A stretch of 64,000 nt of DNA from an uncultured Gammaproteobacteria bacterium (GTDB taxonomy: Bacteria > Patescibacteriota > Microgenomatia > UBA10105 > UBA927), in NCBI GenBank assembly GCA_964361785.1, contig CAYIBX010000001.1, positions 5,857-69,856 on the forward strand, written 5' to 3'. The notes under the pieces were generated by a model. The model did not search any database and was not told the origin of the DNA. It saw only the letters and a list, made by a program, of their open reading frames with translations. A program made the position numbers and the translations under genes. How positions within the stretch are numbered: the stretch's first letter is position 1; each line of letters starts with the position of its first letter. Shown piece after piece: positions 1,133 to 57,770 of this stretch.

Positions 1133-2733
1133 AAGTTAGCTATATCCTACTTGGGATTATTGTCGTTCTCGCAGCGTGGCTTAGACTAACAAATCTTACC
1201 TCTAATCCGCCAGCGCTTTCATGGGATGAAGTATCTATAGGCTACAACGCGAATACTATTTTATCTAAAGGTACTGATGAGCATGGTGTGCGATTTCCTC
1301 TTGGAGCTTTTGCCGGATTTGGTGATTACAAACCATCACTTCCTATTTATCTTACCGTTCCTTTTATCGCAGTTTTTGGTTTGTCTGATTTGGCAGTTCG
1401 GTTGCCCTCTTCCATTTTTGGCATACTGACGGTGTTGTTGATGTATTTTCTTGTGAAAGAATTATTCTCCAATCAAAGACTTGCTCTTTTAAGCGCCTTA
1501 TTTTTGGCTATCTCTCCGTGGCACATTATGCTCTCTAGAACTGGATTTGAAGCAAATATTGCAGCATTTTTTGTTACACTTGGCGTGTATCTTCTATTAG
1601 TTTCACGAAAGAATTCAAACGTATTGCCTTTCGCCTTTTTGCCATTCGTCTTAGGCATGTATACGTTTAATTCAGCACGGTATGCAGGACCTCTTATCGC
1701 TTTTGGAGTGCTCTGTTTTTCGTGGGGTGCAATTTCGAAAGCGAAAACTTCTCTTTATAAAGGATTGATTATCGCAGCAATTGCTTTACTGCCGCTTATG
1801 CCGCATCTTGTTTCGAAAGAAGCCAGACTTCGGTTTCAAGAGGTAAGTATTTTTACAGATCTTCAAGTCATACTTACTTCAAACCAACGAAGTCTGGTAG
1901 ATGGAAATTCGTGGTGGTCCAAAGTCGTTGACAACAGGCGATTTGGATATGGCAGAGAATATCTTGTGCATTTTTTGGATAACGTAGAACCTCGATTTCT
2001 TTTTATCAAAGGGGATGGAAATCCTAAATTTTCTATTCAGGATACAGGACAATTACTGCTTGTTACCGCCCCGTTTATTTTTATCGGATGGTTAGCGCTT
2101 TTTGCGCGTCAGCCGAAAATAGCAGGATTGCTTCTTTTTTGGCTGTTGGCTTCCATTGCACCAGCAGCAGTTGCTCGTGAAACGCCACATGCTCTTCGGG
2201 TGGAAAATGGATTGCCGGTATGGATCATCATTACGGCATACGGATATGTACAGTTTCTGAGTATGTTTGCCGGCAAAAAGCTGCGGTTATTCGTTGGTAT
2301 TGTCATGGTTCTTTTAGTGCTTGGAAACTTTGGTTATTTTTGGCATACGTATACGACACATTATAAAAAAGAATATTCAGGCGAATGGCAATATGGGTAC
2401 AAAGAAGCTATTGAGTATAGCGAGAGTGTGAAAGAAAAGTATGACGTGATAGTACTCACAGAGAGCCTCGGCCGGCCATATATCTACACGCTTTTTTATG
2501 GAAAGTATGACCTTTCATTTTTCCAAACCACTAAAGATGCCTCGTTTGATAAAGAGGGATTTTATAATGTTTATCGGTTTGGCAAATATCGATTTGTACG
2601 ACACATAAACGAGAAGTATGAGGGTCGCGTGCTCTATATACTCCCAATAAACGAAGTCCCAGAGAATGCAAAAGTCTTAAAAAACATTTCGCTATTAAAT
2701 GGCTTTATCGGGCTTGTGATATTTGAGTTATAA
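1129..2733 (+). CDS. GT39-family (PMT/ArnT-like) polyprenyl-phosphate-sugar-dependent membrane glycosyltransferase, paralog 1
   Basis: 534 aa multi-TM protein. N-terminal loop has 'WDEVSIGYNANT...GTDEHG' (DE motif), then 'ISPWH' and 'ARETPHALR', which are typical of GT39/PMT. It is the first of three tandem paralogs. Confidence 0.7.
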   Translation: MKVSYILLGIIVVLAAWLRLTNLTSNPPALSWDEVSIGYNANTILSKGTDEHGVRFPLGAFAGFGDYKPSLPIYLTVPFIAVFGLSDLAVRLPSSIFGILTVLLMYFLVKELFSNQRLALLSALFLAISPWHIMLSRTGFEANIAAFFVTLGVYLLLVSRKNSNVLPFAFLPFVLGMYTFNSARYAGPLIAFGVLCFSWGAISKAKTSLYKGLIIAAIALLPLMPHLVSKEARLRFQEVSIFTDLQVILTSNQRSLVDGNSWWSKVVDNRRFGYGREYLVHFLDNVEPRFLFIKGDGNPKFSIQDTGQLLLVTAPFIFIGWLALFARQPKIAGLLLFWLLASIAPAAVARETPHALRVENGLPVWIIITAYGYVQFLSMFAGKKLRLFVGIVMVLLVLGNFGYFWHTYTTHYKKEYSGEWQYGYKEAIEYSESVKEKYDVIVLTESLGRPYIYTLFYGKYDLSFFQTTKDASFDKEGFYNVYRFGKYRFVRHINEKYEGRVLYILPINEVPENAKVLKNISLLNGFIGLVIFEL

Positions 2734-2735
2734 CA

Positions 2736-4361
2736 ATGAAAAAAACATTATTGCTCGGATCAATTCTAATTCTTGCTGCGGTGCTGCGATTTTGGCAGTT
2801 AGGCGCCGTGCCGCCAAGTCCTGATTGGGATGAAGCAGCATTAGGGTACAACGCGTATTCACTGCTTACTACTGGCCGCGATGAGTATGGTACGCATTGG
2901 CCACTTGCTTTACGATCATTTGATGATTATAAGCCTCCGCTCTATGCATATTTAGCAATACCATCCATTAAAGTTTTTGGTCTTTCTCTTTTTTCCGTGA
3001 GACTGCCTGCCGCAATTATGGGTGTTTTAGGCGTCTTGGGGACATATTTTTTAGTGACCTTTTTGTTTAAAAATTTGACACTTGGACTTTTGAGCGCGAT
3101 TCTTTTGGCCATATCGCCATGGCATTTACAATTTTCGCGTATCGCATTTGAAGCAAATGTTGGGGTGACCCTCAATATTTGGGGCATGTATTTTCTTTTT
3201 AAGTCTTTAAACAATGGCAAGGTGATGCCAATTTCTGCTTTTATTTTAGGACTCGGGTTTTACGCGTATCATAGTGAGAGAGTATTTATACCCCTTTTTA
3301 TTCTTTTGGTGTTCGTGTTGTTTAGTAAGAAGTTTTTCGCAAAGTGGAAATATTTTTTAGTATCTCTCGGAGTAGGTGCTATTATCGTCGCTCCATTATT
3401 TCCCATTGTTTTCGGAAACAATGGCCTTACCCGGCTGAAAGGAACCAGTAGCCTTTCCGATCAGACGGGTCTACTTTCTAAAAGTGTAGCTAGGTTAGAA
3501 GACGATGTAATACGCGGGGATTTATTTGGCGCCATGTGGGAAAACAGACGCTTGGTGTATGTCAAGACTATTGCAGATGGATACCTCTCACATTTTTCTC
3601 TCAAATGGTTGTTTTTGACGGGGGACAATGGGCGACATCATGCGCCTGATATGGGCCTTATGTATCTTTGGGAATTGCCATTTTTTCTTTGGGGCATGGT
3701 GGAGGTGTTTAAACGCGGCGGTGTCAATGCAAAATTACTTTTTGGATGGCTTCTGTTAGTCCCTGTCGCTGCATCTGTCACTTCAGAGACTCCTCATGCG
3801 ATACGAACACTTGTAGCACTGCCTTTGCCGCAAATTTTTACTGCTTTTGGTCTCTTTAGCGTCTATATCAATTTTATGAAGAAGATAAAAAATCTTACAA
3901 AGAATATGCGTGTGGTTGTTTTCGCTATTTTCGTTTTTAGTTTTTTGGCTTTAGTATTTAACATCGGTTATTACTTTCATATGTACTACTCGCACATGAA
4001 CATCGAGTATTCTCAAGTTTGGCAATATGGATACAAACAAGCAGTCGAATACACAGAGGCGCATAAATCAAAGTATAAGAAGATAGTTGTGTCTACGAAA
4101 TTAGAACAACCGCACATGTTCTATTTATTTTTTATGAAATATGATCCCAGCTTCTATTTAGCTGGAGGCGGCACGGCGTCGGGTGGATTTGCCGAGGTGA
4201 GAAACAGATTTGATGTGTATGAATTTCGGCCTATTCACTGGCCGAATGAATTGCACGACGGCTCGATTTTGTATGTAGGAACACCGCGGGAAATTCTTAC
4301 AGATCCCATATACAGAATTTCATTTCTTAATGGGTTCGAGGCGATACGAATTGCAGAGTAA
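2736..4361 (+). CDS. GT39-family membrane glycosyltransferase, paralog 2
   Basis: 541 aa. Shares 'DWDEAALGYNAYS...GRDEYG', 'ISPWH' and 'SETPHAIR' with its neighbours. Confidence 0.7.
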   Translation: MKKTLLLGSILILAAVLRFWQLGAVPPSPDWDEAALGYNAYSLLTTGRDEYGTHWPLALRSFDDYKPPLYAYLAIPSIKVFGLSLFSVRLPAAIMGVLGVLGTYFLVTFLFKNLTLGLLSAILLAISPWHLQFSRIAFEANVGVTLNIWGMYFLFKSLNNGKVMPISAFILGLGFYAYHSERVFIPLFILLVFVLFSKKFFAKWKYFLVSLGVGAIIVAPLFPIVFGNNGLTRLKGTSSLSDQTGLLSKSVARLEDDVIRGDLFGAMWENRRLVYVKTIADGYLSHFSLKWLFLTGDNGRHHAPDMGLMYLWELPFFLWGMVEVFKRGGVNAKLLFGWLLLVPVAASVTSETPHAIRTLVALPLPQIFTAFGLFSVYINFMKKIKNLTKNMRVVVFAIFVFSFLALVFNIGYYFHMYYSHMNIEYSQVWQYGYKQAVEYTEAHKSKYKKIVVSTKLEQPHMFYLFFMKYDPSFYLAGGGTASGGFAEVRNRFDVYEFRPIHWPNELHDGSILYVGTPREILTDPIYRISFLNGFEAIRIAE

Positions 4362-4366
4362 AAGGC

Positions 4367-6010
4367 ATGTCTATGTTTAATCGTACATATTTAGGTTTCA
4401 CGTTCATTTTACTTTTTGCAGCGTTTTTGCGGCTTTATGCATTGGCTTTCGTGCCGCCTTCACCTTCTCTTGATGAAGTTTCCATAGGCTACAACGCATA
4501 TTCCATACTTACGACGGGCAAAGATGAGTATGGGTATAGATTGCCGCTTCTTCTTCGCGCGTATGATGATTGGCGCCCTGCGCTGTACGTATACATGGTC
4601 ATCCCGTTTGTAAAATTAATGGGTCTTTCATCTTTAGCTGTTCGATTTCCGTCTATAATTTTGTCGCTTTTTGCTGTGTATCTGATGTTTCGTCTCGGCA
4701 AACTTTTTTCGCGGTTTAACAGTCGATTACGATACTTAGGTGAGGCGGCATCGTTTTTTATAGCAATATCGCCGTGGCATATTTATATTTCCCGTTTAGG
4801 ACATGAAGCGAATTTAGGATTTACGTTAACGCTTGCGGGAGTGTATGCACTGTGTGTGTTTATTATAGAAAAAAAACAATGGTATCTTTTGTGGGCATCA
4901 ATATTGTTTGGCGCCTCACTTCATGGGTACCAAAGTCAAAAAGTTATTACACCAATTCTTCTTATAGCATTTGGCGCAATGTATTGGAAAGAATGCGTAA
5001 AACATATAAAAGCGGCGTGTCTATCAGTATGTGTATTTCTTCTTATTGTACTTCCTGCCGTGTATGTAACGGTTACCGGAGAGGGATTGAGCAGGCTTAA
5101 AGGTACGAGTGCATTCTCTGTCGATGCCCCAGTGTACACACAAGCGTTTCAAGCCTTACAAATTGCAAAAAGTTCTAACGACGTTATAGGAAAGATAATA
5201 AATAATCATAAAGTAGTTATGGCAAGAGTTTTTACCAATAATTACTTTTCTCATTTTGCCCCACCATGGTTATTTATGGGAAGCGAACGGGAAGCTCATA
5301 AAGTGCCGAATATGGGCCTTTTGTATTCATGGGAATTGGTAAGTGTACTTGTGGGGCTTATTTATCTTATTGTTTTTAGCAGTATAGATTTTCGTGTATT
5401 GCTTTTTTTATTGGTGTGGGGACTTTCAGGCCCATTGCCCGCCGCGATTACAACCCAAGCTCCACACGCCATGCGTAGCTTTACATGGCTTCCTCCATTG
5501 GCGCTTATCAGCGCTATTGGTGTGTTGGAATTATGGTATGTCGCAAGAAAAATTACATGGACGCGCTGGATTATCGTAGGAGGAATTATTTTATTAAGCC
5601 TCATGCAATTTGGAAAAGGGTATTTTATAACGTTTCCTCGTACACAATCAGATTCGTTTCAGTATGCCATGAAAGATACGATGGCTTTTGTACAGGGAAC
5701 GAAAAATGAATATAAACAAATTGTCTTTTCAAATAACAGCAATTTGTATCAGTCGTATATGTTTTATCTTTTTTATACCTCGTTTGATCCTAGCCGTTAT
5801 CAAACGCTCGGCGGCAGTGTGTCAGGCGGATATGACAAGCCGCATACGATTAAGAATTTTGAATTTCGCTCAATAAACTGGTCTACAGAAGTGCTCAAAG
5901 CTGATACGCTGTATATTACTGATAGTAAAGAGGCGCCTACGCGAAAACGCGTGGTAAATATATTTAAGAATCTTGACGGGAAAGAAGCAATTATTGCATT
6001 TACCTTATGA
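4367..6010 (+). CDS. GT39-family membrane glycosyltransferase, paralog 3
   Basis: 547 aa. Carries 'LDEVSIGYNAYS...GKDEYG', 'ISPWH' and 'TQAPHAMR'. Its stop overlaps the next start (ATGA). Confidence 0.7.
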   Translation: MSMFNRTYLGFTFILLFAAFLRLYALAFVPPSPSLDEVSIGYNAYSILTTGKDEYGYRLPLLLRAYDDWRPALYVYMVIPFVKLMGLSSLAVRFPSIILSLFAVYLMFRLGKLFSRFNSRLRYLGEAASFFIAISPWHIYISRLGHEANLGFTLTLAGVYALCVFIIEKKQWYLLWASILFGASLHGYQSQKVITPILLIAFGAMYWKECVKHIKAACLSVCVFLLIVLPAVYVTVTGEGLSRLKGTSAFSVDAPVYTQAFQALQIAKSSNDVIGKIINNHKVVMARVFTNNYFSHFAPPWLFMGSEREAHKVPNMGLLYSWELVSVLVGLIYLIVFSSIDFRVLLFLLVWGLSGPLPAAITTQAPHAMRSFTWLPPLALISAIGVLELWYVARKITWTRWIIVGGIILLSLMQFGKGYFITFPRTQSDSFQYAMKDTMAFVQGTKNEYKQIVFSNNSNLYQSYMFYLFYTSFDPSRYQTLGGSVSGGYDKPHTIKNFEFRSINWSTEVLKADTLYITDSKEAPTRKRVVNIFKNLDGKEAIIAFTL

Positions 6011-14231: not shown

Positions 14232-15593
14232 ATGGATAGAGAAGTGTGTCAAACGTTAATTTCGACATGGAACCCTCACTTTACTGATCCTTTGAAAGGT
14301 AAATGGATACATACTGTGCCTCGAGAGAAGTATCTTGAGCGCCTCAAAAAACTTCTGGATATTCGTCATGTGTTGATACTTACTGGTGTTCGTCGTGCAG
14401 GGAAATCAACACTGATGCATCAGCTTATGGAGCATCTTATCGTTGAGAAAGGCATACCGGCCAAAAACGTGGTGTATTTGTTTTTGGAGGATATATTGGT
14501 GCAGCAGTATTTGACACAAGGCTGGAAACTCTTGGAAGATATTTTTATCTATTATATGGAGACTTACAACCCGCAAGGGAAAGTTTATATATTTTTGGAT
14601 GAAATTCAAGGAATTAAAGACTTCAATCGTTGGATAAGCAGTAAGTATGAGCGGAAAGATCCTGTTAAGTTTATACTTTCCGGATCACGCCGATCGTTGG
14701 TTGAGTCAGAGTCGGCGACAGTTTTGACCGGCAGAAACGTTCAAGTAGACGTCTACCCCTTTAACTTTTATGAATATTTGCGCATAAAAGGAATTACTAT
14801 AGAAGGGCAAGCGAATATATCATCGATTCTCAAGGCTAATTTCTCCCAACAAACGAAAATTTTACATCACTTGGGGAATTATATGAAAGAAGGCGGGTAT
14901 CCTGAGATAGTGCTTACCGAAGATGAAGATGTCAAACGGACATTGGCATCAAATTATTTTAGAGATACGGTTTCAAGAGACGTTGTGGTGCCCAATGGTG
15001 TTCGAAATCAGCAGGAAGTAGAAGTATTAGGACTTCAGATTATGTCTGATTTTACAAAAACGCATACATACAGTAGTTTATCTCGATCGCAGAAACTCTC
15101 TTTAGAGACTACCAAGTCCTACATCGAGTATTTTCAGCGGGCATATTTACTCTTTGAGAGTAAGCATTATTCGTATAAAACGAAGGAGACGCAGGATGTG
15201 CAAAGAGCCCGAAAGATGTACGTAGTCGATAATGGACTGCGAAATTTTAACGTGCCGCTTTTACGGCCTGATATCGGGCAATGTGCGGAAAATGTAGTAT
15301 ACATGGAGTTAAAAAAACAATCGCAGGCGATTTACTATTGGAAAGGCAAAAAAGAGATAGATTTTGTGACTATGGATCCTGCGTTGGCTTTTTATAATGT
15401 TTCATATACTGATCAGCCGCATGAGAGAGAAACACAGGGCATGGTAGAAGGATTGCAGGAGTTTAATAAGGAAAAAGGATATGTGTTGACGAAAAATTAT
15501 TCGGCTATACAAAAGATAGATGGAAAAACTTTGGAATTTATTCCGCTCTGGGCGTGGTTAGTCTTCCATGGTAAGGCATTTTTCAACGCATGA
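14232..15593 (+). CDS. AAA-type ATPase with DUF4143-like C-terminal domain
   Basis: Walker A 'GVRRAGKST'. Size and layout match the AAA_14 + DUF4143 family. It is unrelated to glycan synthesis and is preceded by its own promoter. Confidence 0.65.
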   Translation: MDREVCQTLISTWNPHFTDPLKGKWIHTVPREKYLERLKKLLDIRHVLILTGVRRAGKSTLMHQLMEHLIVEKGIPAKNVVYLFLEDILVQQYLTQGWKLLEDIFIYYMETYNPQGKVYIFLDEIQGIKDFNRWISSKYERKDPVKFILSGSRRSLVESESATVLTGRNVQVDVYPFNFYEYLRIKGITIEGQANISSILKANFSQQTKILHHLGNYMKEGGYPEIVLTEDEDVKRTLASNYFRDTVSRDVVVPNGVRNQQEVEVLGLQIMSDFTKTHTYSSLSRSQKLSLETTKSYIEYFQRAYLLFESKHYSYKTKETQDVQRARKMYVVDNGLRNFNVPLLRPDIGQCAENVVYMELKKQSQAIYYWKGKKEIDFVTMDPALAFYNVSYTDQPHERETQGMVEGLQEFNKEKGYVLTKNYSAIQKIDGKTLEFIPLWAWLVFHGKAFFNA

Positions 15594-16342
15594 AAAAATT
15601 TTCTGTAATCATACCTGTATACAACGAAAAGACGACAGTAGAAGAAGTGCTTACTCGCGTGTCCCAAACGAAGGTTGTAGGGTGGGAGAAAGAAATCATT
15701 ATTATCGATGACGGATCGACCGATGGCACGCAAGAGATACTGAAAACATGGGTGAAGAAGGTAGAGGTCATTTTCAAGAAGAAAAATGAAGGCAAAGGAT
15801 CGGCGGTAACAATAGGGATTACGATGGCCACTGGTGATATTATTCTTATCCAAGATGCTGATTTAGAATACAGTCCATCCGATTATCCGATACTGTTGGC
15901 TCCATTTGAAAACGGTCGGGTTCATGTCGTATATGGATCACGATTTTTGGGTGGACACTTATCTACTATGTTTGTCTATGCGTTGGGAAATAAATTTGTC
16001 ACACTCGTTACCAATATTCTTTACAACACAAATATTACGGACATGGAGACAGGATACAAAGTATTTGATGCATCAGTATTGAAAAATATACGTATTAAAG
16101 CAAAGCGGTTTGATTTTGAACCGGAAATTACTGCAAAGGTGTTGCGGAGCGGGTTTCAAATATATGAAGTGCCTATTTCGTATTTTGGTCGCAAATTCTC
16201 CGAAGGCAAGAAGCTCACGTGGCGTGATGGAGTGACGGCACTTTTTACACTGTTGCGATTACGATTTTGGTCGCCGACCCGCTTCGCCCGCCTAGACTCG
16301 GCGAGACTAGTCGAAGCTTCAGCGAGGCGAGCCCGAACATGA
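15590..16342 (+). CDS. Family 2 glycosyltransferase (Dpm1/polyprenyl-phosphate sugar synthase-like)
   Basis: 'FSVIIPVYNEKTTVEEV...IIIDDGSTDGT...QDADLEY'. The last ~22 codons are read from a GC-rich repeat module (see findings). Confidence 0.8.
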   Translation: MKKFSVIIPVYNEKTTVEEVLTRVSQTKVVGWEKEIIIIDDGSTDGTQEILKTWVKKVEVIFKKKNEGKGSAVTIGITMATGDIILIQDADLEYSPSDYPILLAPFENGRVHVVYGSRFLGGHLSTMFVYALGNKFVTLVTNILYNTNITDMETGYKVFDASVLKNIRIKAKRFDFEPEITAKVLRSGFQIYEVPISYFGRKFSEGKKLTWRDGVTALFTLLRLRFWSPTRFARLDSARLVEASARRART

Positions 16343-33200: not shown

Positions 33201-33737
33201 ATGAGTAAGGAACAGAGAGTTGTTATGATTGCCGGTAATGGATTCGACGAAGTGGAAGTAAAAGTTCCGATGGAATATCTGCCAAAGAATGGTATTGAAC
33301 TTGATCTGGCCACGCTATACAGAACTGCCGACGTGCCGATAGAAGGAAAAAAGGGGTATCGGATAGAGCCGACCGTACATGTTTCTGATTTAAAGCCGGA
33401 AAATTATGATGCGGTATTGCTCCCTGGCGGGCATGAGGGGCCGGACCGCGTACGCGGAAATGAGACGGTCATTAAATTCGTTCAGGACATGAATGCATCT
33501 GGAAAGATCGTTGCGGCGATTTGCCATGGGCCATGGGTGCTTTGTACTGCCGAAATTCTTCATGGAAAAAAAGCGACATGTTACCCTGCTATGAAAGCCG
33601 ATCTTGTTCATGCAGGAGCTATATATGTTTCTGAAAATGTTGTGGCAGATGGAAATCTTATTACAGCAGACAGACCAGAAACGAGTGAGGCGTGGTGTAA
33701 TAAAATCGTAGAAGTTTTACATAAGAAACAAGAATGA
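33201..33737 (+). CDS. DJ-1/PfpI family protein
   Basis: 'AAICHGPWVL' nucleophile-elbow motif. An AAGGAG RBS lies 9 nt upstream. Confidence 0.8.
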   Translation: MSKEQRVVMIAGNGFDEVEVKVPMEYLPKNGIELDLATLYRTADVPIEGKKGYRIEPTVHVSDLKPENYDAVLLPGGHEGPDRVRGNETVIKFVQDMNASGKIVAAICHGPWVLCTAEILHGKKATCYPAMKADLVHAGAIYVSENVVADGNLITADRPETSEAWCNKIVEVLHKKQE

Positions 33738-45625: not shown

Positions 45626-45973
45626 ATGAAAAAAGATATTCAAAAAATGATGCATGACACGGCAAAATGGATTCATGGAAATCCACTGACTTTTTTGGCA
45701 TTTGTCTCCATACTCGTTATAGCTGAAGTATTTGCTTTTCCGATTTCATTAGATGTGCGATTGTTTGGTGCACTATTTTTATATTGGTTTCTTGCTCGTA
45801 TAGGAAAGCTTACGAGTGCGCGAGTGTTTCAATTGTGTATTATTTTGTTGACTGGAATGGTTTTAGGATATCTAATCAGCGGAGCAGCAGCGACTACTGA
45901 GCGTTTGGCCGTTTGGTTTGTATTATTTTTCGTTCTCGGAATATTTACGCAGTGGCGGGAGATAACCGCATGA
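45626..45973 (+). CDS. Small 2-3 TM membrane protein, tandem paralog 2
   Basis: See the previous feature. Its stop overlaps the start of giant paralog 2. Confidence 0.5.
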   Translation: MKKDIQKMMHDTAKWIHGNPLTFLAFVSILVIAEVFAFPISLDVRLFGALFLYWFLARIGKLTSARVFQLCIILLTGMVLGYLISGAAATTERLAVWFVLFFVLGIFTQWREITA

Positions 45974-48900
45974 AAGGAAAGTTGCTCCCTACGGTCATTA
46001 CGTGTATTCTTTTCATCATTCCTTTTTTTTGGCTCAAACCCGGATTTATGGATTTAGGGGGGGATTCCAGCCGATTGTACTTTTATGATCCTCTCCGATA
46101 TCTTATTAATTACTCTTTGTTTGTTGTGTCTCCCTCTGGTGGAGGCAGTGAGAATATCGGTTTTATGACGATACCATTTGTGGCTCTTTTGGCAGTAGCA
46201 AAGCGAATACTTGTCTCATCGACAGTACTTATAAGCGCATTTCATGGTTTCAGTTTAGCCGCGAGTTTTTTGTTTGTATATTTATCGGTTGTTCAACTGT
46301 TGCACACTTCCATGAAAGGCGAACGATTAAAAGAATTAGCAGCATTGGCAGGAGGGTTACTCTATGTTTTTTCACCCATTTCAATATTTGGTTGGGATAA
46401 GGTGCTTATAACCCATAATTATGTATTCCTAAACCCTGTCATGTTTTATTTGATGTTGCGATACATGGTGACTGATCGGTTTTTTTATCTTTTTTGGGCG
46501 CTTCTGGTAACTTTTATATTTTCTGCGAATTTTAGTTTTGCAGCTGCACCGGTTTTCTTTGCATTTTATCCAATTTCTCTTGTGTTGTTACTGGTGTATA
46601 AACGACGGGTATTGGATCAAGCTGTTCATTGGAGACAGCTTGGTGTGGCGAGTATTGTATTTATACTTCTTCAGGCGTTTCATATAGTGCCGCAAATTGC
46701 CAGCATGGTAACTCCTGGGAGTGTTTTGTATTCTGCTGTGTTTTCTTCCCAGGGGAAGTTTGATCGCGGACTTGGATACTTTTCCTCCATTGCGCCGAGT
46801 ATAAAAACATCGATTAATGTGATGTTACTTCCGCAGATGACGGAAGTTTCTAAACTCCTTATATTCATGATAATGCTTCCATTGACGGTTATATTAGGGT
46901 TGTTGCGAAGCGGAAAAGAGGAACAACGATTTAAGAAAACGTTCCTGTTGATCGGGGCATTCTTTATTGTGATTTTCTTTTTTGCCACAGGGAATATCAC
47001 TGATCTTGGTCTGTCGGTATATAAAAAATTATTTATACTTCCTGGATTTTCTATCTTTCGTAACTTTTATGGACAGTGGGCGGGTGCATACTTATTTTAT
47101 TATGCGGTGATTTTTGGATTAGCGCTTCCTGTCGTATTAGAGGTGTATAAGAAAGCGAAGGTGTGGCTTTTAGTTTTTGTTTTTTTGCTTCTCGTTAACG
47201 CGTGGCAGTTTATCAACGGATCTTTAACAAATCCACTTTTATGGGATGCTGACAATATTCGGATAGCTATGAATATGGATCCTAATTTTAAACTGGCTCT
47301 TGAGTATATTCGCAAATTGCCCACAGGCGGAAAAGTATTGACGCTCCCACTTACTGATTTTGGCTATCAGATTGTAGCAGGGAAAGATACTGGAGCATAT
47401 CAAGGGCCGTCGATGATTTCATATTTGGGGGGAAAACAGGATTTTTCGGGGACTGGCGAATTTGGAAGATATCGTGAACTTTTTCTTGAAAGCGTACGGG
47501 ATGGAAACATAGATGAGGTGAAGCGTATATTGGGTATCTTAAATATCAGGTATGTGTTTTATACTAGTGACCCGAAGGTGTATGATGCTTTTCTTGAGTT
47601 TCCGTATAATGACGTCAGAAAATATTTTCCCAAACGTCAGAAAGAGTATGCACAGTTTGTCGATTCGCTTGCGCTACGACTCGTAGCTTCTTTTGATAAT
47701 CGATTTTATATTTATGAACTGCCCAGTGAGAATGTGACACCTCGCATTTATATCGCAAAAAATACGACAGCCATATCGCGAGTGGTTGTAGACGCTTCTG
47801 TACCGTTAGAATTGTTGTCTGATGATATTGGTGAGTCTGCGTTTTTTGATGGATCTCAGACGCCATCATCTGCATCGGCATTTTGGTATCCAGCGGAATC
47901 GCAAAGCTCTCTTCTTGCCATGGTAAAAAATCCAGATCCGTTCAGGATCATGCACCATGCGTTCGTGACTACGTCGCCTTCGTCATTTTATTATCCGTTG
48001 ATAGTATTAAAGGAAACAGTAAAATTATGGAAATTTGGCAGAGCCAATTATTTTTCGCGTATCGACCAACAATCATTTTTATCCGCAAAGCGAATTCTTG
48101 AGTTGGAACGTTGGGGCGAGAGTATGTCGGTATTGGGAACGTTACACACACTTTCTGATTTTAACACTGCGCACAAAGAGCCCGGAGTGTCTCGTGATAG
48201 TCCTCGCCTTTGGGATGTTTCTGCATGGAAGCGTTTAAATAGTTGGGAAGCAACACTTGCGCGCTACTATAGATATTTTGACGATAATATAAAAACGATT
48301 GATGCCATAGATCAATCGCTACAATGGAAGATGGAACAAAAATTCCTACTGTCTGAATATTTGCGTCAGCACTACCGACGACTAACGCTTCTGATACAGC
48401 AGCGTGATCCCATAAAAGCACACAGAGACTATCTTGAAGAGATTACGGATATGATATTTGGAAACCTTCTTGAGAGGACCAATGCGGATCTCTCTGATTT
48501 GACTATACCGTATAGCGTGCAATTGCCGAAGGGTAACACTGAATCGTATGGTGTCTATCTTGATAAAAATACGTATGGTATAAATGAGCATTTTTCCATA
48601 ACAGTTGGGGATGAGAAGCTAGATAGTTTGATAACTGAAGAAGGTCGCTGGAATAAATTAGGCACAGTAGTGCAAACAGAAAATGATTCCCTGAATCAAA
48701 TGCGTCTGTCTTTGATTGAACCGAAAAATTTATTAACGGATAATTCAAGGATGATGCTAGAATCAGAACTTTCATCCACAGATTCAGCGAGTTTTGCGAT
48801 AGACGCGCGCTATATAAAGGGCGCAAAGGGATTGGTGTGGAAGATTGACGATTGGCAACCGCAAAGTTATTATCTTTTGACATTTGCCTATCGCACAAGC

Positions 48901-49578
48901 GGGGAGCCGTTTGTCGTTCGGACGCTAGAAAGTGAGATTCTTCGACCCGCTTCGCCCCAGAACGCTCAGCGAGGCGAGCAAGCTCAGGACGGAAAAGTTG
49001 ATAGTACAAATACGATTGTTGAAGATATGTTGAAATCTCCTACATGGGCACAGTATCAAGCAGTGGTCAGGACCAATAAGTTCGTGAATACTGGATTTAT
49101 ACAGATATCTCCATCCACCGATCACTTATCCCTTTCGCGCATAGAGCTCAAGAATGTATCGCTTGTTCATATACCGCATCCTCTCGTGATGCTTTTGAAA
49201 AACAACGAGAAGAAAATTGTGTCGCAACCGACCATATCATTCGTTCAAGTTAATCCAACGCTGTATAAAATTCATGTTTCTGGTGCAGATCAACCATATG
49301 TATTAGCATTGAGTGAAGCGTTTAATCGCAGGTGGCGCGTCTCTCTTGCTGGTTTTGATAAAGGTATCGCCAGCACGCGTCACTTTCAAGCCAATGGGTA
49401 TGCGAATGCGTGGTATATAACGCCAGAAGATGTTGATAGGCAAAGTGAATATGATTTGGAATTGTATATGAGTATGCAATCCTATTTTTATATTGGCGCG
49501 AGTATAAGTATCGTTGCATTAATCGGTTTACTATCGTATGGAATGTGGAGATATATAAAAAAATGGGGTCGCGTATGA
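45970..49578 (+). CDS. Giant (~1200 aa) polytopic membrane protein, giant-family paralog 2, with a ~400-aa extracytoplasmic insertion
   Basis: 'MDLGGDSSRLYFYDPLRYL', 'LPGFSIFRNFYGQW', 'KVLTLPLTDFG', 'GPSMISYLGGKQDFSG', C-terminal 'GYANAWYIT'. Collinear with 42849..45284 except for an extra soluble block from about 47.8 to 49.2 kb. Confidence 0.6.
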   Translation: MKGKLLPTVITCILFIIPFFWLKPGFMDLGGDSSRLYFYDPLRYLINYSLFVVSPSGGGSENIGFMTIPFVALLAVAKRILVSSTVLISAFHGFSLAASFLFVYLSVVQLLHTSMKGERLKELAALAGGLLYVFSPISIFGWDKVLITHNYVFLNPVMFYLMLRYMVTDRFFYLFWALLVTFIFSANFSFAAAPVFFAFYPISLVLLLVYKRRVLDQAVHWRQLGVASIVFILLQAFHIVPQIASMVTPGSVLYSAVFSSQGKFDRGLGYFSSIAPSIKTSINVMLLPQMTEVSKLLIFMIMLPLTVILGLLRSGKEEQRFKKTFLLIGAFFIVIFFFATGNITDLGLSVYKKLFILPGFSIFRNFYGQWAGAYLFYYAVIFGLALPVVLEVYKKAKVWLLVFVFLLLVNAWQFINGSLTNPLLWDADNIRIAMNMDPNFKLALEYIRKLPTGGKVLTLPLTDFGYQIVAGKDTGAYQGPSMISYLGGKQDFSGTGEFGRYRELFLESVRDGNIDEVKRILGILNIRYVFYTSDPKVYDAFLEFPYNDVRKYFPKRQKEYAQFVDSLALRLVASFDNRFYIYELPSENVTPRIYIAKNTTAISRVVVDASVPLELLSDDIGESAFFDGSQTPSSASAFWYPAESQSSLLAMVKNPDPFRIMHHAFVTTSPSSFYYPLIVLKETVKLWKFGRANYFSRIDQQSFLSAKRILELERWGESMSVLGTLHTLSDFNTAHKEPGVSRDSPRLWDVSAWKRLNSWEATLARYYRYFDDNIKTIDAIDQSLQWKMEQKFLLSEYLRQHYRRLTLLIQQRDPIKAHRDYLEEITDMIFGNLLERTNADLSDLTIPYSVQLPKGNTESYGVYLDKNTYGINEHFSITVGDEKLDSLITEEGRWNKLGTVVQTENDSLNQMRLSLIEPKNLLTDNSRMMLESELSSTDSASFAIDARYIKGAKGLVWKIDDWQPQSYYLLTFAYRTSGEPFVVRTLESEILRPASPQNAQRGEQAQDGKVDSTNTIVEDMLKSPTWAQYQAVVRTNKFVNTGFIQISPSTDHLSLSRIELKNVSLVHIPHPLVMLLKNNEKKIVSQPTISFVQVNPTLYKIHVSGADQPYVLALSEAFNRRWRVSLAGFDKGIASTRHFQANGYANAWYITPEDVDRQSEYDLELYMSMQSYFYIGASISIVALIGLLSYGMWRYIKKWGRV

Positions 49579-53614: not shown

Positions 53615-54583
53615 TCATATAATGACCGAAGATTTCAATTGTGATTGTGCCCAGTAGTGTGTTTGTGTCAAGCCCTTGGTAAACGATGTGGAGGGTTTGA
53701 AAGAAAAGTCTGTGAAAGCCTTTTTCATATCAGCCTCCATAAAGCGTTGTTCGCCGGGACGCTGATCTTTATAGACGACAGGATACGTATCGGGATTTTT
53801 TCCTGCTGCTTGTATCACTGCTCTCACCATATCTTTGACACTTATTTGTTTACCATTTCCGAGATTGTATACTTGTTGAAATACGTTGGGTTTGTCGATA
53901 GCGAGTGTCCATGCTTTGATGACATTATCTATATAGATAAAATCCCGTGTTTGTAAACCATCTCCATATATAGTAACGGGCTCATTTCGAAGCACATTGC
54001 CGATAAATATGGCGAGCGCCCCTTGGTAGGAATTAGTCAGACTTTGTCTTGGGCCATAGACATTGAACATGCGAAAAGAGGTGACGTTGAATGGTTTTTT
54101 TAGGTCGGTGCGGGCCGCTGTCGCGTGGACGAAGCGCTCCGCGGCATATTTTGAGATTCCATAGTAGGAAACTGGCTTGCAGGAGTGAGTTTCTGATACA
54201 GGGAGCGAGTCTGGATGACCGTAGGCTGTCATGGAGGAAGCGTAGAGAAATCGTGTGACGTTTGCGGCAAGGGCTGCGAGCACCACGTTGACTGTCCCTT
54301 TGAAATTGACATCGATGTCAAAATGCGGATCGGAAAAAGAATTAATATTGGATGCTTGTCCTGCGATATGAAAAATGATGTCTGGTTTCACTTTTTGTAC
54401 GATAGAAAGTATCTTATCTTTGTTTCGTACGTCTTCGATATAGAGTGGTATATTTTTTGGAACAAATGTTTTATTTCCAGTGGCTAGATTGTCTACTACA
54501 TGAACGTTGTATGTCTTTGACAATTTGTCTACAAGGTGAGAACCGATAAATCCTGCACCGCCAGTTATTAATGCTTTTTGCAT
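53615..54583 (-). CDS. NAD-dependent epimerase/dehydratase (UDP-hexose 4-epimerase-like SDR)
   Basis: Start at the internal ATG giving 'MQKALITGGAGFIGSHLVDKL'. The ORF's 63-codon N-terminal extension is rejected. 'YGISKYAAE' present. Confidence 0.7.
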   Translation of the reverse strand: MQKALITGGAGFIGSHLVDKLSKTYNVHVVDNLATGNKTFVPKNIPLYIEDVRNKDKILSIVQKVKPDIIFHIAGQASNINSFSDPHFDIDVNFKGTVNVVLAALAANVTRFLYASSMTAYGHPDSLPVSETHSCKPVSYYGISKYAAERFVHATAARTDLKKPFNVTSFRMFNVYGPRQSLTNSYQGALAIFIGNVLRNEPVTIYGDGLQTRDFIYIDNVIKAWTLAIDKPNVFQQVYNLGNGKQISVKDMVRAVIQAAGKNPDTYPVVYKDQRPGEQRFMEADMKKAFTDFSFKPSTSFTKGLTQTHYWAQSQLKSSVII

Positions 54584-55864: not shown

Positions 55865-56155
55865 ATGGTAAATAATACGATTGATCAGATAAAGGTTAAA
55901 GCAGTACCTATTCTTATGAGAGCGGGCGTGACTCGCTCTTCTATTTATGGTTCATATGTACGAGGCGAGCAAAAGCAAGAGAGTGATATTGATTTACTTG
56001 TTGATGTACCGCGAGGAACGAGTCTATTTGATTTAGCGGATTTACAAATAAAGCTTGAAGAGGCGCTTGGTAAAAATGTTGATCTTGTTACCTATGCATC
56101 AGTACATCATCTTTTGAAAGATCGAATTATGGCTGAACAAATAGGCATATTATGA
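55865..56155 (+). CDS. Nucleotidyltransferase-domain antitoxin (MNT/MntA-like)
   Basis: 'GSYVRGEQKQESDIDLLVD' matches the GSx9-13DxD motif. 96 aa. Overlaps the partner gene by 4 nt. Confidence 0.8.
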   Translation: MVNNTIDQIKVKAVPILMRAGVTRSSIYGSYVRGEQKQESDIDLLVDVPRGTSLFDLADLQIKLEEALGKNVDLVTYASVHHLLKDRIMAEQIGIL

Positions 56156-56510: not shown

Positions 56511-56584
56511 ATCCTTTGATATAATACGCCTATGGCAGGAAAAATGGTAAGTGTAGTCACAGGTGGGGCTGGGTTTATAGGGAG
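56511..56584 (+). repeat. Right ~74-bp direct repeat (authentic UXS promoter/5' end)
   Basis: 'cctttgatataatacgcctatggcaggaaaaatggtaagtgtagtcacaggtggggctgggtttataggga'. Confidence 0.7.
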
Positions 56585-57530
56585 TAATTTAGTGAATAAA
56601 CTCCTTGACTTTGGGCATACGGTCATAGCTGTCGATAATTTAATTACTGGTAGAGTTGAAAACCTCACCGAGGCAATACGTAACTCTCAATTTTCTTTTA
56701 TTCAGGCAGATGTTATAAAAGGCTTGCCGGAGATTTCCGATGTCACGCATGTGTGGCATTTGGCTTCCCCCGCATCGGTTGAAGGGTATCAAAACAATCC
56801 TGAAGAAACAGCGCTGGTCAATTCGGTGGGGACTAGAAATGCGCTTATCTTTGCTAAAGAGCACAATACTCGGCTTATTTATACCTCAACCAGTGAAGTA
56901 TATGGAGACCCAAAACAACATCCGCAAAAGGAAACGTACTGGGGGAATGTGAATCCTAATGGCGTGCGAAGTTGCTACGACGAAAGCAAACGATACGGCG
57001 AAATGATGACCCTGCTTTATCATACAAAACATGGCGTAGACACAAGAATTGCGCGGATATTTAATACGTATGGTCCGAATATGAAAGCGAACGATGGACG
57101 CGTGGTATCTAACTTTATCAATCAAGCGCTTGTTCATAAACCACTGACTGTCTATGGCGACGGACTACAGACGAGATCTTTTTGCTATGTGTCGGATCAG
57201 GTGGCCGGCCTTATTTCTTTGATGGAAAAAGAGAAGGCAAACGGGGAGGTCGTTAATATAGGAAATCCTGAGGAGTATACGGTGATTGATTTAGCCAAAA
57301 AGATTATTTTTCTTACCAATAGTACGTCAGAGATTGTCTATTCGAAACTTCCATCAGACGATCCGGTGAAAAGATGCCCTGATATTACCAAAGCCAAAGA
57401 ATTATTAGATTGGGAGCCTGTCGTTTCTGTTGACGAAGGATTGAAGAAAACTATTGTCTACTATAGACAACAGTTAACACCCGCCTGCAAACGCCTGAGC
57501 GTAGCGATGGCGGGCAGGGTTAACAGTTAA
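56532..57530 (+). CDS. uxs: UDP-glucuronate decarboxylase (UDP-xylose synthase)
   Basis: 'VVTGGAGFIGSNLV...TSTSEVYGDPKQHPQKETYWGNVNPNGVRSCYDESKRYGE...RIARIFNTYGPNM' is the UXS/ArnA-C signature. Confidence 0.85.
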   Translation: MAGKMVSVVTGGAGFIGSNLVNKLLDFGHTVIAVDNLITGRVENLTEAIRNSQFSFIQADVIKGLPEISDVTHVWHLASPASVEGYQNNPEETALVNSVGTRNALIFAKEHNTRLIYTSTSEVYGDPKQHPQKETYWGNVNPNGVRSCYDESKRYGEMMTLLYHTKHGVDTRIARIFNTYGPNMKANDGRVVSNFINQALVHKPLTVYGDGLQTRSFCYVSDQVAGLISLMEKEKANGEVVNIGNPEEYTVIDLAKKIIFLTNSTSEIVYSKLPSDDPVKRCPDITKAKELLDWEPVVSVDEGLKKTIVYYRQQLTPACKRLSVAMAGRVNS

Positions 57531-57770
57531 CAGTTTACTTTTTATGAAAACTCAAGATATAAGTTTTTTTGTAGTTTTTGTCTTACTTTTGGTTAGTCGT
57601 AAGCCGATTTTGTTTGTGTGGTCAGGACTTCTTATGCTTTTTCTAGCTATCCCGTTGTTTGCGTTCCATATATTTTTTACGGCCGAAAGACTTACGTGGT
57701 ATGCGGCTGCGTTCTTTCTTTTCTTCATTCTATTTTCTTTTATACCCTCCCAGAAAGGCAAAATAACAGT

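Follow-up and report, generated by a model that had tools for sequence, protein, structure and literature searches.

Within a stretch of 64,000 nucleotides (nt) of contig CAYIBX010000001.1 (positions 5,857 to 69,856 of the forward strand; hereafter the window), the sequence at 48947-48979 probably represents a REP/SDR-like hairpin repeat, GC-rich, very small and non-autonomous, that was mobilised in trans and is tolerated in a loop of the 1202-amino-acid (aa) membrane protein in whose gene it is located. A second copy (copy 1) lies at the end of a glycosyltransferase gene of the same window, and by sequence comparison with close relatives both copies are shown to be insertions. The same ends were found in other genomes, in more than 80 copies of the element, in line with the small dispersed repeat proposed in an earlier reading of the letters alone (the original prediction). 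That reading had also called the repeat mobile. The differences in presence and absence and the dispersal agree with this, and it is from them that we infer mobility itself, namely that mobilisation of the element in trans is ongoing or took place recently.

A 33-nt in-frame insertion in a large membrane protein gene

The host gene, the insert (copy 2) and its flanks are arranged as follows:

45970..49578, + strand: host gene of copy 2, encoding the 1202-aa membrane protein, within the open reading frame (ORF) 45913..49578; no Pfam match
48940..48946, + strand: left flank of copy 2, CTTCGAC; the 'empty' site of L124 has it too, and it recurs beside family copies at the unrelated loci L108, L132 and L007
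48947..48979, + strand: core of copy 2, a 33-nt insert CCGCTTCGCCC-CAGAACGCTCA-GCGAGGCGAGC; a clean gap in L124, with termini that are exact matches
48980..48988, + strand: right flank of copy 2, AAGCTCAGG; the same as the right flank of the 27-mer copy L108 (Curtissbacteria rRNA spacer); L124 has AGGCTCAGG

The region 48941-48985 has the sequence ttcgacccgcttcgccccagaacgctcagcgaggcgagcaagctc. The boundaries of the core are subject to an ambiguity of 1 nt (a C), which makes 48946-48978 equally possible. The core codes for PASPQNAQRGE (residues 993-1003 of the 1202-aa protein) and is translated in-frame, as had been predicted, within ...RPASPQNAQRGEQAQDG...; the peptide across the insert reads ...EILRPASPQNAQRGEQAQDGK.... 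The N-terminal half of the host protein is polytopic; the protein further has a large soluble block and, at its C-terminus, a transmembrane helix. More than 100 full-length orthologs (approximately 1170-1290 aa) were found in Microgenomates-type Patescibacteria. In an alignment of 30 sequences, PASPQNAQRGE is absent from all 29 orthologs, including outgroups at 36-82% identity. The closest ortholog (P0001, locus L124; 92% aa identity) differs by exactly those 11 residues, and in its DNA (96% nt identity over approximately 1 kb around the site) exactly 33 nt are missing. The site reads ...GAGATTTTTCGA|CAGGCTCAGG in L124 (longer reading ...GAGATTTTTCGA|CAGGCTCAGGATGG...) and GAGATTCTTCGA + 33 nt + CAAGCTCAGG in the window (longer reading ...GAGATTCTTCGA[ CCCGCTTCGCCCCAGAACGCTCAGCGAGGCGAG ]CAAGCTCAGGACGG...). 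A comparison of this filled site with the empty one in L124 revealed no target duplication. In L125 and L126 (78% and 77% nt identity, respectively) a gap of 45 nt is located at the position of copy 2 and spans the 33-nt element, and the length of the loop around copy 2 varies among the orthologs. The proposal that about 15 residues at this place might be an indel is borne out by the 33-nt gap in L124 and by 28 more orthologs without the peptide. Conservation of the peptide across orthologs without conservation of the nucleotides, which would have spoken against the original prediction, was not seen.

The identical 33 nt were found in a second carrier (L007, CAYHQC010000008.1, obtained in another study), of which approximately 1 kb is 86% nt-identical to the window overall. 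In a sliding-window comparison of L007 with window positions 48253-49250, L124 and L125, the carrier is 90-100% identical to the element-free L125 over most of the 1 kb and window-like in two patches, columns 250-400 and approximately 100 nt around the element (93-96% identity there). Judged from this pattern, L007 is probably a recombination mosaic, and the allele with copy 2 probably spreads by homologous exchange as well. The record of L007 is labelled 'uncultured Gammaproteobacteria', yet the gene is an ortholog of a Patescibacteria gene, which renders the taxon label unreliable.

Protein context of the insert

The 842-aa paralog of the host protein aligns to residues 4-595 and 1085-1187 of the 1202-aa protein and lacks a block of approximately 490 aa (residues 596-1084), within which residues 993-1003 of copy 2 fall. 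The alignment confirms that copy 2 is located inside an extra soluble block relative to this paralog. The designation of the block as an insertion domain holds in part: the block is real, but it is not particular to this genome, since more than 100 full-length orthologs have conserved it as well.

An AlphaFold2 model was calculated for the last 323 residues of the 1202-aa protein on the basis of 55 aligned sequences (mean pLDDT 82.9). In the model, the 11 inserted residues (fragment residues 114-124) are found in a low-confidence loop with pLDDT values of 57-65, between the strands 102-110 and 134-142 (pLDDT >85), which agrees with the exposed loop predicted originally. The modelled domain resembles the jelly-rolls of CBM4, CBM16 and CBM22 (Foldseek E ~1e-5, target TM ~0.65), and the model supports a position of the insert in an exposed variable loop of a CBM-like beta-sandwich. 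For the host gene, copy 2 is most likely a tolerated passenger insertion in a loop, which implies no function for the host protein.

A second copy at the end of a glycosyltransferase gene

Copy 1 and its gene are located in the first third of the window:

15590..16342, + strand: gene of a GT2 glycosyltransferase (Pfam PF00535, E = 3e-34) with copy 1 at its 3' end
16275..16337, + strand: copy 1, a 63-nt in-frame insertion composed of CGAC, a 54-nt core (16279-16332) and CCGAA

Copy 1 adds 21 codons to the GT2 gene as its last 21 codons, and the ATGA stop/start overlap with the next gene is preserved. The site is empty in the syntenic locus L127 (GGTCGC|CATGAAAAAA) and also in the syntenic L129; compared to both, no target duplication but only a 1-nt C microhomology is present. 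All 119 GT2 homologs listed are 226-246 aa long, versus 250 aa here; they cover 90-94% of the query, and the tail is missing. Copy 1 is read as PTRFARLDSARLVEASARRART up to the stop codon, in a frame different from that of copy 2, so that the likeness of the two copies is one at the DNA and not at the peptide level. The right half of copy 1 (AAGCTTCA-GCGAGGCGAGC) is common to 30-nt variants of the family and is accompanied by a palindromic insert of 24 nt, the start of which (GCCTAGACTCGGCGAG) recurs in the Levybacteria copy L063.

In a k-mer scan of the window, the 15-mer CGACCCGCTTCGCCC was found only at 16275 and 48943 and the 14-mer TCAGCGAGGCGAGC only at 16319 and 48966, all on the + strand. 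The order of both blocks is the same in the two copies, while the spacer is 29 nt in copy 1 and 8 nt in copy 2. The same scan thus reproduced the two 14-mers and the spacers reported originally, and it ruled out that the 14-mers are common strings within the window. Repeated 14-mer segments number 27 in the window compared to approximately 14 in Markov simulations; a collinear two-block pair with a shifted spacer is present once, versus 0 in 100 first-order Markov simulations. Both copies are among the seven most GC-rich 40-nt spots of the window, the overall G+C content of which is 39.6%. Further copies in the window, searched with up to 2 mismatches per 11-nt terminus, were not found above shuffle expectation, nor did other relaxed searches of the window for degenerate copies exceed it. 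A third partial match (55961-55972, CGAGGCGAGCAA, 12 nt), which resembles the right end of copy 2, was rejected as a chance match made up of Arg-Gly-Glu-Gln codons; it reads VRGEQ within the GSYVRGEQKQESDIDLLV stretch of a nucleotidyltransferase-like gene (PF01909).

A family of short repeats with the same ends

A search for CCGCTTCGCCC-N(0-30)-GCGAGGCGAGC in one genome per GTDB species yielded at least 120 loci. In genomes of high GC content the spacers of the matches are arbitrary, and chance probably accounts for these matches. The statistics were compiled for 83 distinct copies in the listed loci with up to 56% G+C, including the two copies of the window and three later metagenome copies, and all counts given below apply to these listed matches. 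A scan of JGI metagenomes with the two 14-mer blocks provided three more copies in unrelated contexts. More than half of the copies (54 of 83) are 27 nt long, and 42 of these are exactly CCGCTTCGCCCGCGAAGCGAGGCGAGC; the five central bases of this sequence were left unspecified in the search pattern, yet they are identical in the 42 copies. The length is a multiple of 3 in 77 of the 83 copies and, when the 27-mers are left aside, in 23 of 29, compared to one third expected by chance. The base at position -1 is C in 79 and the base at -2 a purine in 78 of the 83 copies (T at -2 in 4), which gives a consensus C-G-R-C for positions -4 to -1.

The family ends CCGCTTCGCCC and GCGAGGCGAGC contain the imperfect inverted repeats GCT(T)CGCC and GGCGAGC, with a short variable centre in between. 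Copy 2 corresponds to the 'GCTCA' variant of the 27-mer with six additional bases (CAGAAC). The centre of the canonical 27-mer CCGCTTCGCCCGCGAAGCGAGGCGAGC contains GCGAAGC, a very stable DNA mini-hairpin whose stability is missed by the energy model. Folded as DNA, cores of 27-33 nt have predicted energies of -6.5 to -8.5 kcal/mol, and on these predictions a hairpin structure of the element is plausible rather than demonstrated.

According to the record labels, the hosts among the matches listed include Davies-, Levy-, Curtiss-, Falkow- and Magasanikbacteria, Parcubacteria and Saccharibacteria within the Patescibacteria, and furthermore several Nitrospira, whose contigs measure hundreds of kb, as well as Omnitrophota, Sedimentisphaerales, Phycisphaerales and Ignavibacteriales. 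The host metagenome-assembled genomes (MAGs) are low-GC genomes of Patescibacteria, Nitrospirota, Omnitrophota and Planctomycetota. No cyanobacterial copies were found among the at least 120 loci listed. Viral contigs (IMG/VR) searched with the general pattern gave 0 matches, which leaves a phage vector unsupported. No Rfam family was matched at E <= 1, either by the whole window or by nine family loci at the element, and a known structured RNA or ribozyme is therefore unsupported. A DNA uptake sequence was likewise rejected, since the copies are indels and not motifs arisen by point mutation. Within the searchable library of papers, a literature search with 16-18-mers of the element and with the common outer-hairpin motif as strings retrieved nothing relevant, and a keyword search only general reviews of REP, MITE and RPE; the family is probably undescribed, although its class, the small G+C-rich palindromic repeats, is known.

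Approximately 69% of the copies among the matches listed are spanned by an ORF of 450 nt or longer, versus 84% for random positions. The strand of the element is the same as that of the spanning ORF in 39 cases and opposite in 16, whereby the orientation of the ORF is only a proxy for the replication strand. No stop codons are present in the element in any of the six frames. The most common frame is of the PASPAKRGE type (22 of the 39 same-strand copies), and this frame is also used by copy 2. In the valyl-tRNA synthetase (ValRS) gene of L103 (~2454-4728), a 27-mer is inserted in-frame between W and P of TLGWP, where an exact gap of 9 aa appears in comparison with the Thermus enzyme (1GAX). 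Other in-frame 27-mers (L067, L111 and L020) are found in genes for DnaJ, TsaD (twice, each with flanking AAATGAA heptamers) and in a PolX-like gene. At least 10 copies lie inside tandem arrays of heptamers or octamers, the period of which continues across the element without duplication, and many others occupy the loop of a larger hairpin rich in G+C (CCCGCC...GGCGGG or GTCATTGCGAG...CTCGCAATGAC, for example). Nested or duplicated forms are represented by L057, L131 and copy 1. In L080, L043, L020, L029 and others, the right terminus continues into a tandem tract of the pentanucleotide GCGAG with up to approximately 8 copies, an indication that slippage can lengthen the right arm. Clustering of the neighbouring genes of 80 loci resulted in no family present at more than 6 loci and no apparent linked transposase.

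Proposed explanation

Copy 2 would have entered, or been copied into, the variable CBM-like loop without duplication of the target, and would thereby add 11 hydrophilic residues. Its persistence would be explained by a length that is a multiple of 3, by the absence of stop codons in six frames and by the tolerance of the loop. Copy 1 would be another member, placed independently of copy 2, whose nested centre is longer. By analogy with known systems, the most likely route of mobilisation is one in which single-stranded hairpin DNA would be handled by a REP/RAYT- or IS200/IS605-like HUH enzyme and inserted 3' of a short RC motif. Such a single-strand route appears most economical because it would explain the hairpin ends, the lack of a duplication, the fixed short 5' motif and the strand bias. 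After insertion, the alleles would spread between strains by homologous recombination.

Beyond the window, it is tentatively proposed that the 27-mer CCGCTTCGCCCGCGAAGCGAGGCGAGC and its multiple-of-3 variants may constitute an undescribed cross-phylum family of mobile DNA, among the smallest known. The family would enter coding sequences, those of essential genes such as ValRS, DnaJ and TsaD among them, without target duplication, and its activity in groundwater Patescibacteria, Nitrospirota, Omnitrophota and Planctomycetota would be ongoing or recent. One and the same sequence in several phyla would in that case call for a mobilising machinery, or a source, that these phyla share horizontally.

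Several observations weigh against the proposed explanation. No transposase or other mobilising gene was found, a genome-wide search of the host genomes not having been made, and only two copies are present within 64 kb. Because the search pattern was fixed at both ends, part of the end conservation is a product of the search. Not all taxon labels of the MAGs can be trusted, as in the case of the 'Gammaproteobacteria' label of L007, with its 86% nt identity to a Patescibacteria gene. The hairpin energies are unexceptional in comparison with GC-matched shuffles (z = -1 to -2 for the cores and approximately 0 with flanks). The additional bases of copy 1 outside the core (CGAC and CCGAA) fit sloppy copying better than precise transposition. 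Finally, copy 2 shares its flanks (C/TCTTCGAC and AAGCTCAGG) in full with the 27-mer copy L108 and in part with L132, and the 'empty' site of L124 keeps TTCGAC|AGGCTCAGG, flanks that are also seen around the L108 copy. Either the mobile unit is larger and the core was lost precisely in L124, or the core is nested in a pre-existing small outer element. As L124 keeps L108-like flanks, a gain and a precise loss at copy 2 are both compatible with the data, and both readings imply an unstable or mobile core.

Alternative explanations

Some of these observations would also fit a templated patch insertion. In this case the element would be copied from a genomic or foreign donor copy while DNA is repaired or replicated, either by template switching at microhomologies or by gene conversion of a short patch, without a dedicated enzyme, and would then spread by homologous recombination. 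The 1-nt C microhomology at the junctions of both insertion sites, the donor-like flanks of copy 1 (CGAC, CCGAA) recurring beside other copies, the variable and nested centres, the window-like patch that covers the element in the L007 mosaic and the flanks shared by copy 2 and L108 are all in agreement with it. Although a serious rival, it is unlikely, as the sharp ends and the preceding RC are alike in approximately 80 unrelated contexts and clean 27-nt gaps are found in conserved genes such as that of ValRS. Moreover, a 27-mer identical across phyla would need a common active source anyway.

It is very improbable that the insert is a functional module under selection, whether as a charged, flexible linker of the CBM-like domain or as a hairpin of the mRNA that modulates translation or stability. 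The preference for one frame (the PASPAKRGE type in 22 of 39 same-strand copies, also used in copy 2) and the retention of the identical 33 nt in L007 despite diverged flanks could be taken as signs of selection. The module is, however, found neither in the ortholog of 92% identity nor in any of the others, occurs in many unrelated proteins and in intergenic DNA, folds no better than shuffles when the flanks are included and matches no Rfam family.

It is even less probable that copy 2 is an ancestral loop sequence lost in the relatives and that its resemblance to copy 1 is a coincidence of GC-rich, low-complexity coding. The variable loop length among orthologs and the flanks kept in L124 are compatible with a deletion, but the 11 aa are missing from 29 of 29 aligned orthologs (the outgroups at 36-82% identity included), the two copies are read in different frames, the 100 simulations contained 0 collinear pairs, and the same ends occur at more than 80 other loci. 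An assembly or sequencing artefact is practically negligible: the exact 1202-aa protein, and with it the same allele of copy 2, was found on 9 contigs from several Hainich H43 (groundwater metagenome) assemblies, the GT2 protein with the copy 1 tail on 8 contigs and in both ENA and Logan assemblies, and the diverged ortholog L007 from another study carries the element as well.

Implications

If the proposed explanation of copy 2 and its family as a trans-mobilised hairpin repeat is true, uncultivated low-GC bacteria of several phyla share one tiny hairpin element, by which proteins, universally conserved enzymes among them, can be lengthened by 9-21 residues and yet not be disrupted. The sequence shared across phyla would also point to a mobilisation system of groundwater communities that acts in trans, or to a donor common to them. 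The insertions generate lineage-specific indels, by which ortholog alignments and phylogenomic analyses of candidate phyla may be led astray; they lengthen ORFs and give rise to spurious GC-rich 'hypothetical' peptides, and they are usable as strain-level markers.

Other GC-rich elements and the surroundings in the window

A second GC-rich element of different sequence is located downstream of copy 2:

57480..57518, + strand: GC-rich hairpin element of 39 nt, CCCGCCTGC...GGCGGGCAGG, flanked by CAGTTAA heptamer repeats

This hairpin (CCCGCCTGCAAACGCCTGAGCGTAGCGATGGCGGGCAGG; shown with flanks at 57468-57536) lies at the 3' end of the ORF 56532..57530. A copy identical in 38 of 39 positions was found in an unrelated MAG (L083, 4966-5004, isolate HyVt-354), and the left arm CCCGCCTGC is the same as the outer arm around the 27-mer copy in L035. 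The genome thus hosts more than one such mini-element family. The heptamers beside some elements (TCAGTTA/AACTGAT in L130, 385-560, and CAGTTAA in the window) are similar to direct repeats of the sequence TAACTGA reported from Beggiatoaceae and cyanobacteria (PMC4679880). Further GC-rich islands (70-80% G+C in the 39.6% window) are present at 54106-54145 and 4160-4199, while an island at 33419 was judged, by eye only, to be ordinary coding sequence (...PGGHEGPDRVRGNE...).

The window is part of a 113-kb contig of a Hainich groundwater metagenome (0.1 µm fraction), and its proteins are designated 'Patescibacteria group' by NCBI. Window positions 1-52800 are nearly completely occupied by one co-oriented glycosylation locus. 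It encodes many polytopic paralogs of approximately 510-550 aa with weak PMT_2, YfhO or PTPS_related matches, numerous GT2 and GT4 proteins and sugar-nucleotide enzymes. Three large membrane proteins encoded here (842, 1202 and 673 aa) belong to no Pfam family.

Comparison with known systems

Small G+C-rich palindromic repeats can be intragenic or lengthen the 3' ends of genes (PMC3184786; PMC3733652). The Rickettsia palindromic elements (RPE) are 105-146 bp long and restricted to Rickettsia (Ogata et al. 2000, as summarised in PMC3184786). Like these, the element is palindromic, is inserted in-frame within protein genes including conserved ones and is translated as an extra surface peptide; the inserts of 33 nt (11 codons), 63 nt (21 codons) and 27 nt (9 codons, ValRS) all keep the frame. 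In contrast to RPE, the unit is 27-54 nt in size and occurs in Patescibacteria and other phyla.

REP elements and REPINs are mobilised by RAYT transposases (PMC3733652; PMC3116915). A REP is a G+C-rich imperfect hairpin of 20-40 nt with a short unpaired conserved motif at its end, and is dispersed, non-autonomous, free of target duplications and occasionally intragenic, all of which resembles the element. Size and stem-loop correspond to the range of 20-40 bp given for REPs (PMC3733652), with cores of 27-33 nt and GCT(T)CGCC/GGCGAGC arms, the stability of which is not exceptional compared to shuffles. The tag differs: REPs carry GTAG or CGTC (TGTC/CCTC), whereas the element has CGRC and no GTAG at either end. 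Its stem does not begin with A/T pairs either, and on these tag and stem rules, membership in the GTAG/CGTC REP superfamily was rejected. Furthermore, REPs are mostly extragenic, downstream of ORFs, whereas 69% of the element copies are in spanning ORFs, and REPs are specific for a species or genus, whereas the element is shared by several phyla. REPs also reach high copy numbers per genome and have an associated RAYT gene; of the element, two copies lie in the 64 kb covered here, and no RAYT was linked to it, with no recurring neighbour gene among 80 loci.

With MITEs the element has in common that it is non-autonomous and dispersed and has terminal inverted repeats. MITEs, however, are approximately 100-400 bp long and produce target-site duplications, while the element measures 27-54 nt, has imperfect inverted ends of 7-8 nt and causes no duplication. 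The palindrome-associated elements derived from IS200/IS605 are similar with respect to the hairpin ends and the lack of a target duplication, and may be so with respect to the short fixed motif and the strand bias (39:16 for the element, with ORF orientation as a proxy for the replication strand). The motif RC precedes 94-95% of the element copies among the matches listed, and RC could also be part of the element itself. The element is far shorter than the known derivatives, and no tnpA or tnpB was seen, a genome-wide protein search not having been made; the comparison is a mechanistic analogy only.

In its behaviour, the element appears closest to the SDR elements of cyanobacteria. Eight of these (SDR1-8, 21-27 nt) were reportedly described in Nostoc and relatives as 'very small mobile repeated elements' by Elhai et al. 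in 2008 (Genome Res 18:1484), and they are said to be confined to a subgroup of cyanobacteria. Going by this description, the canonical size of 27 nt, the hairpin, the nesting, the embedding in tandem heptamers and the absence of an encoded protein are shared features. Differences, again relative to the description of SDRs, are the occurrence of the element in Patescibacteria, Nitrospirota, Omnitrophota and Planctomycetota and its frequent location in coding frames. If the proposed explanation is true, the phenomenon of 'very small mobile elements', so far cyanobacterial, extends over much of the bacterial tree.

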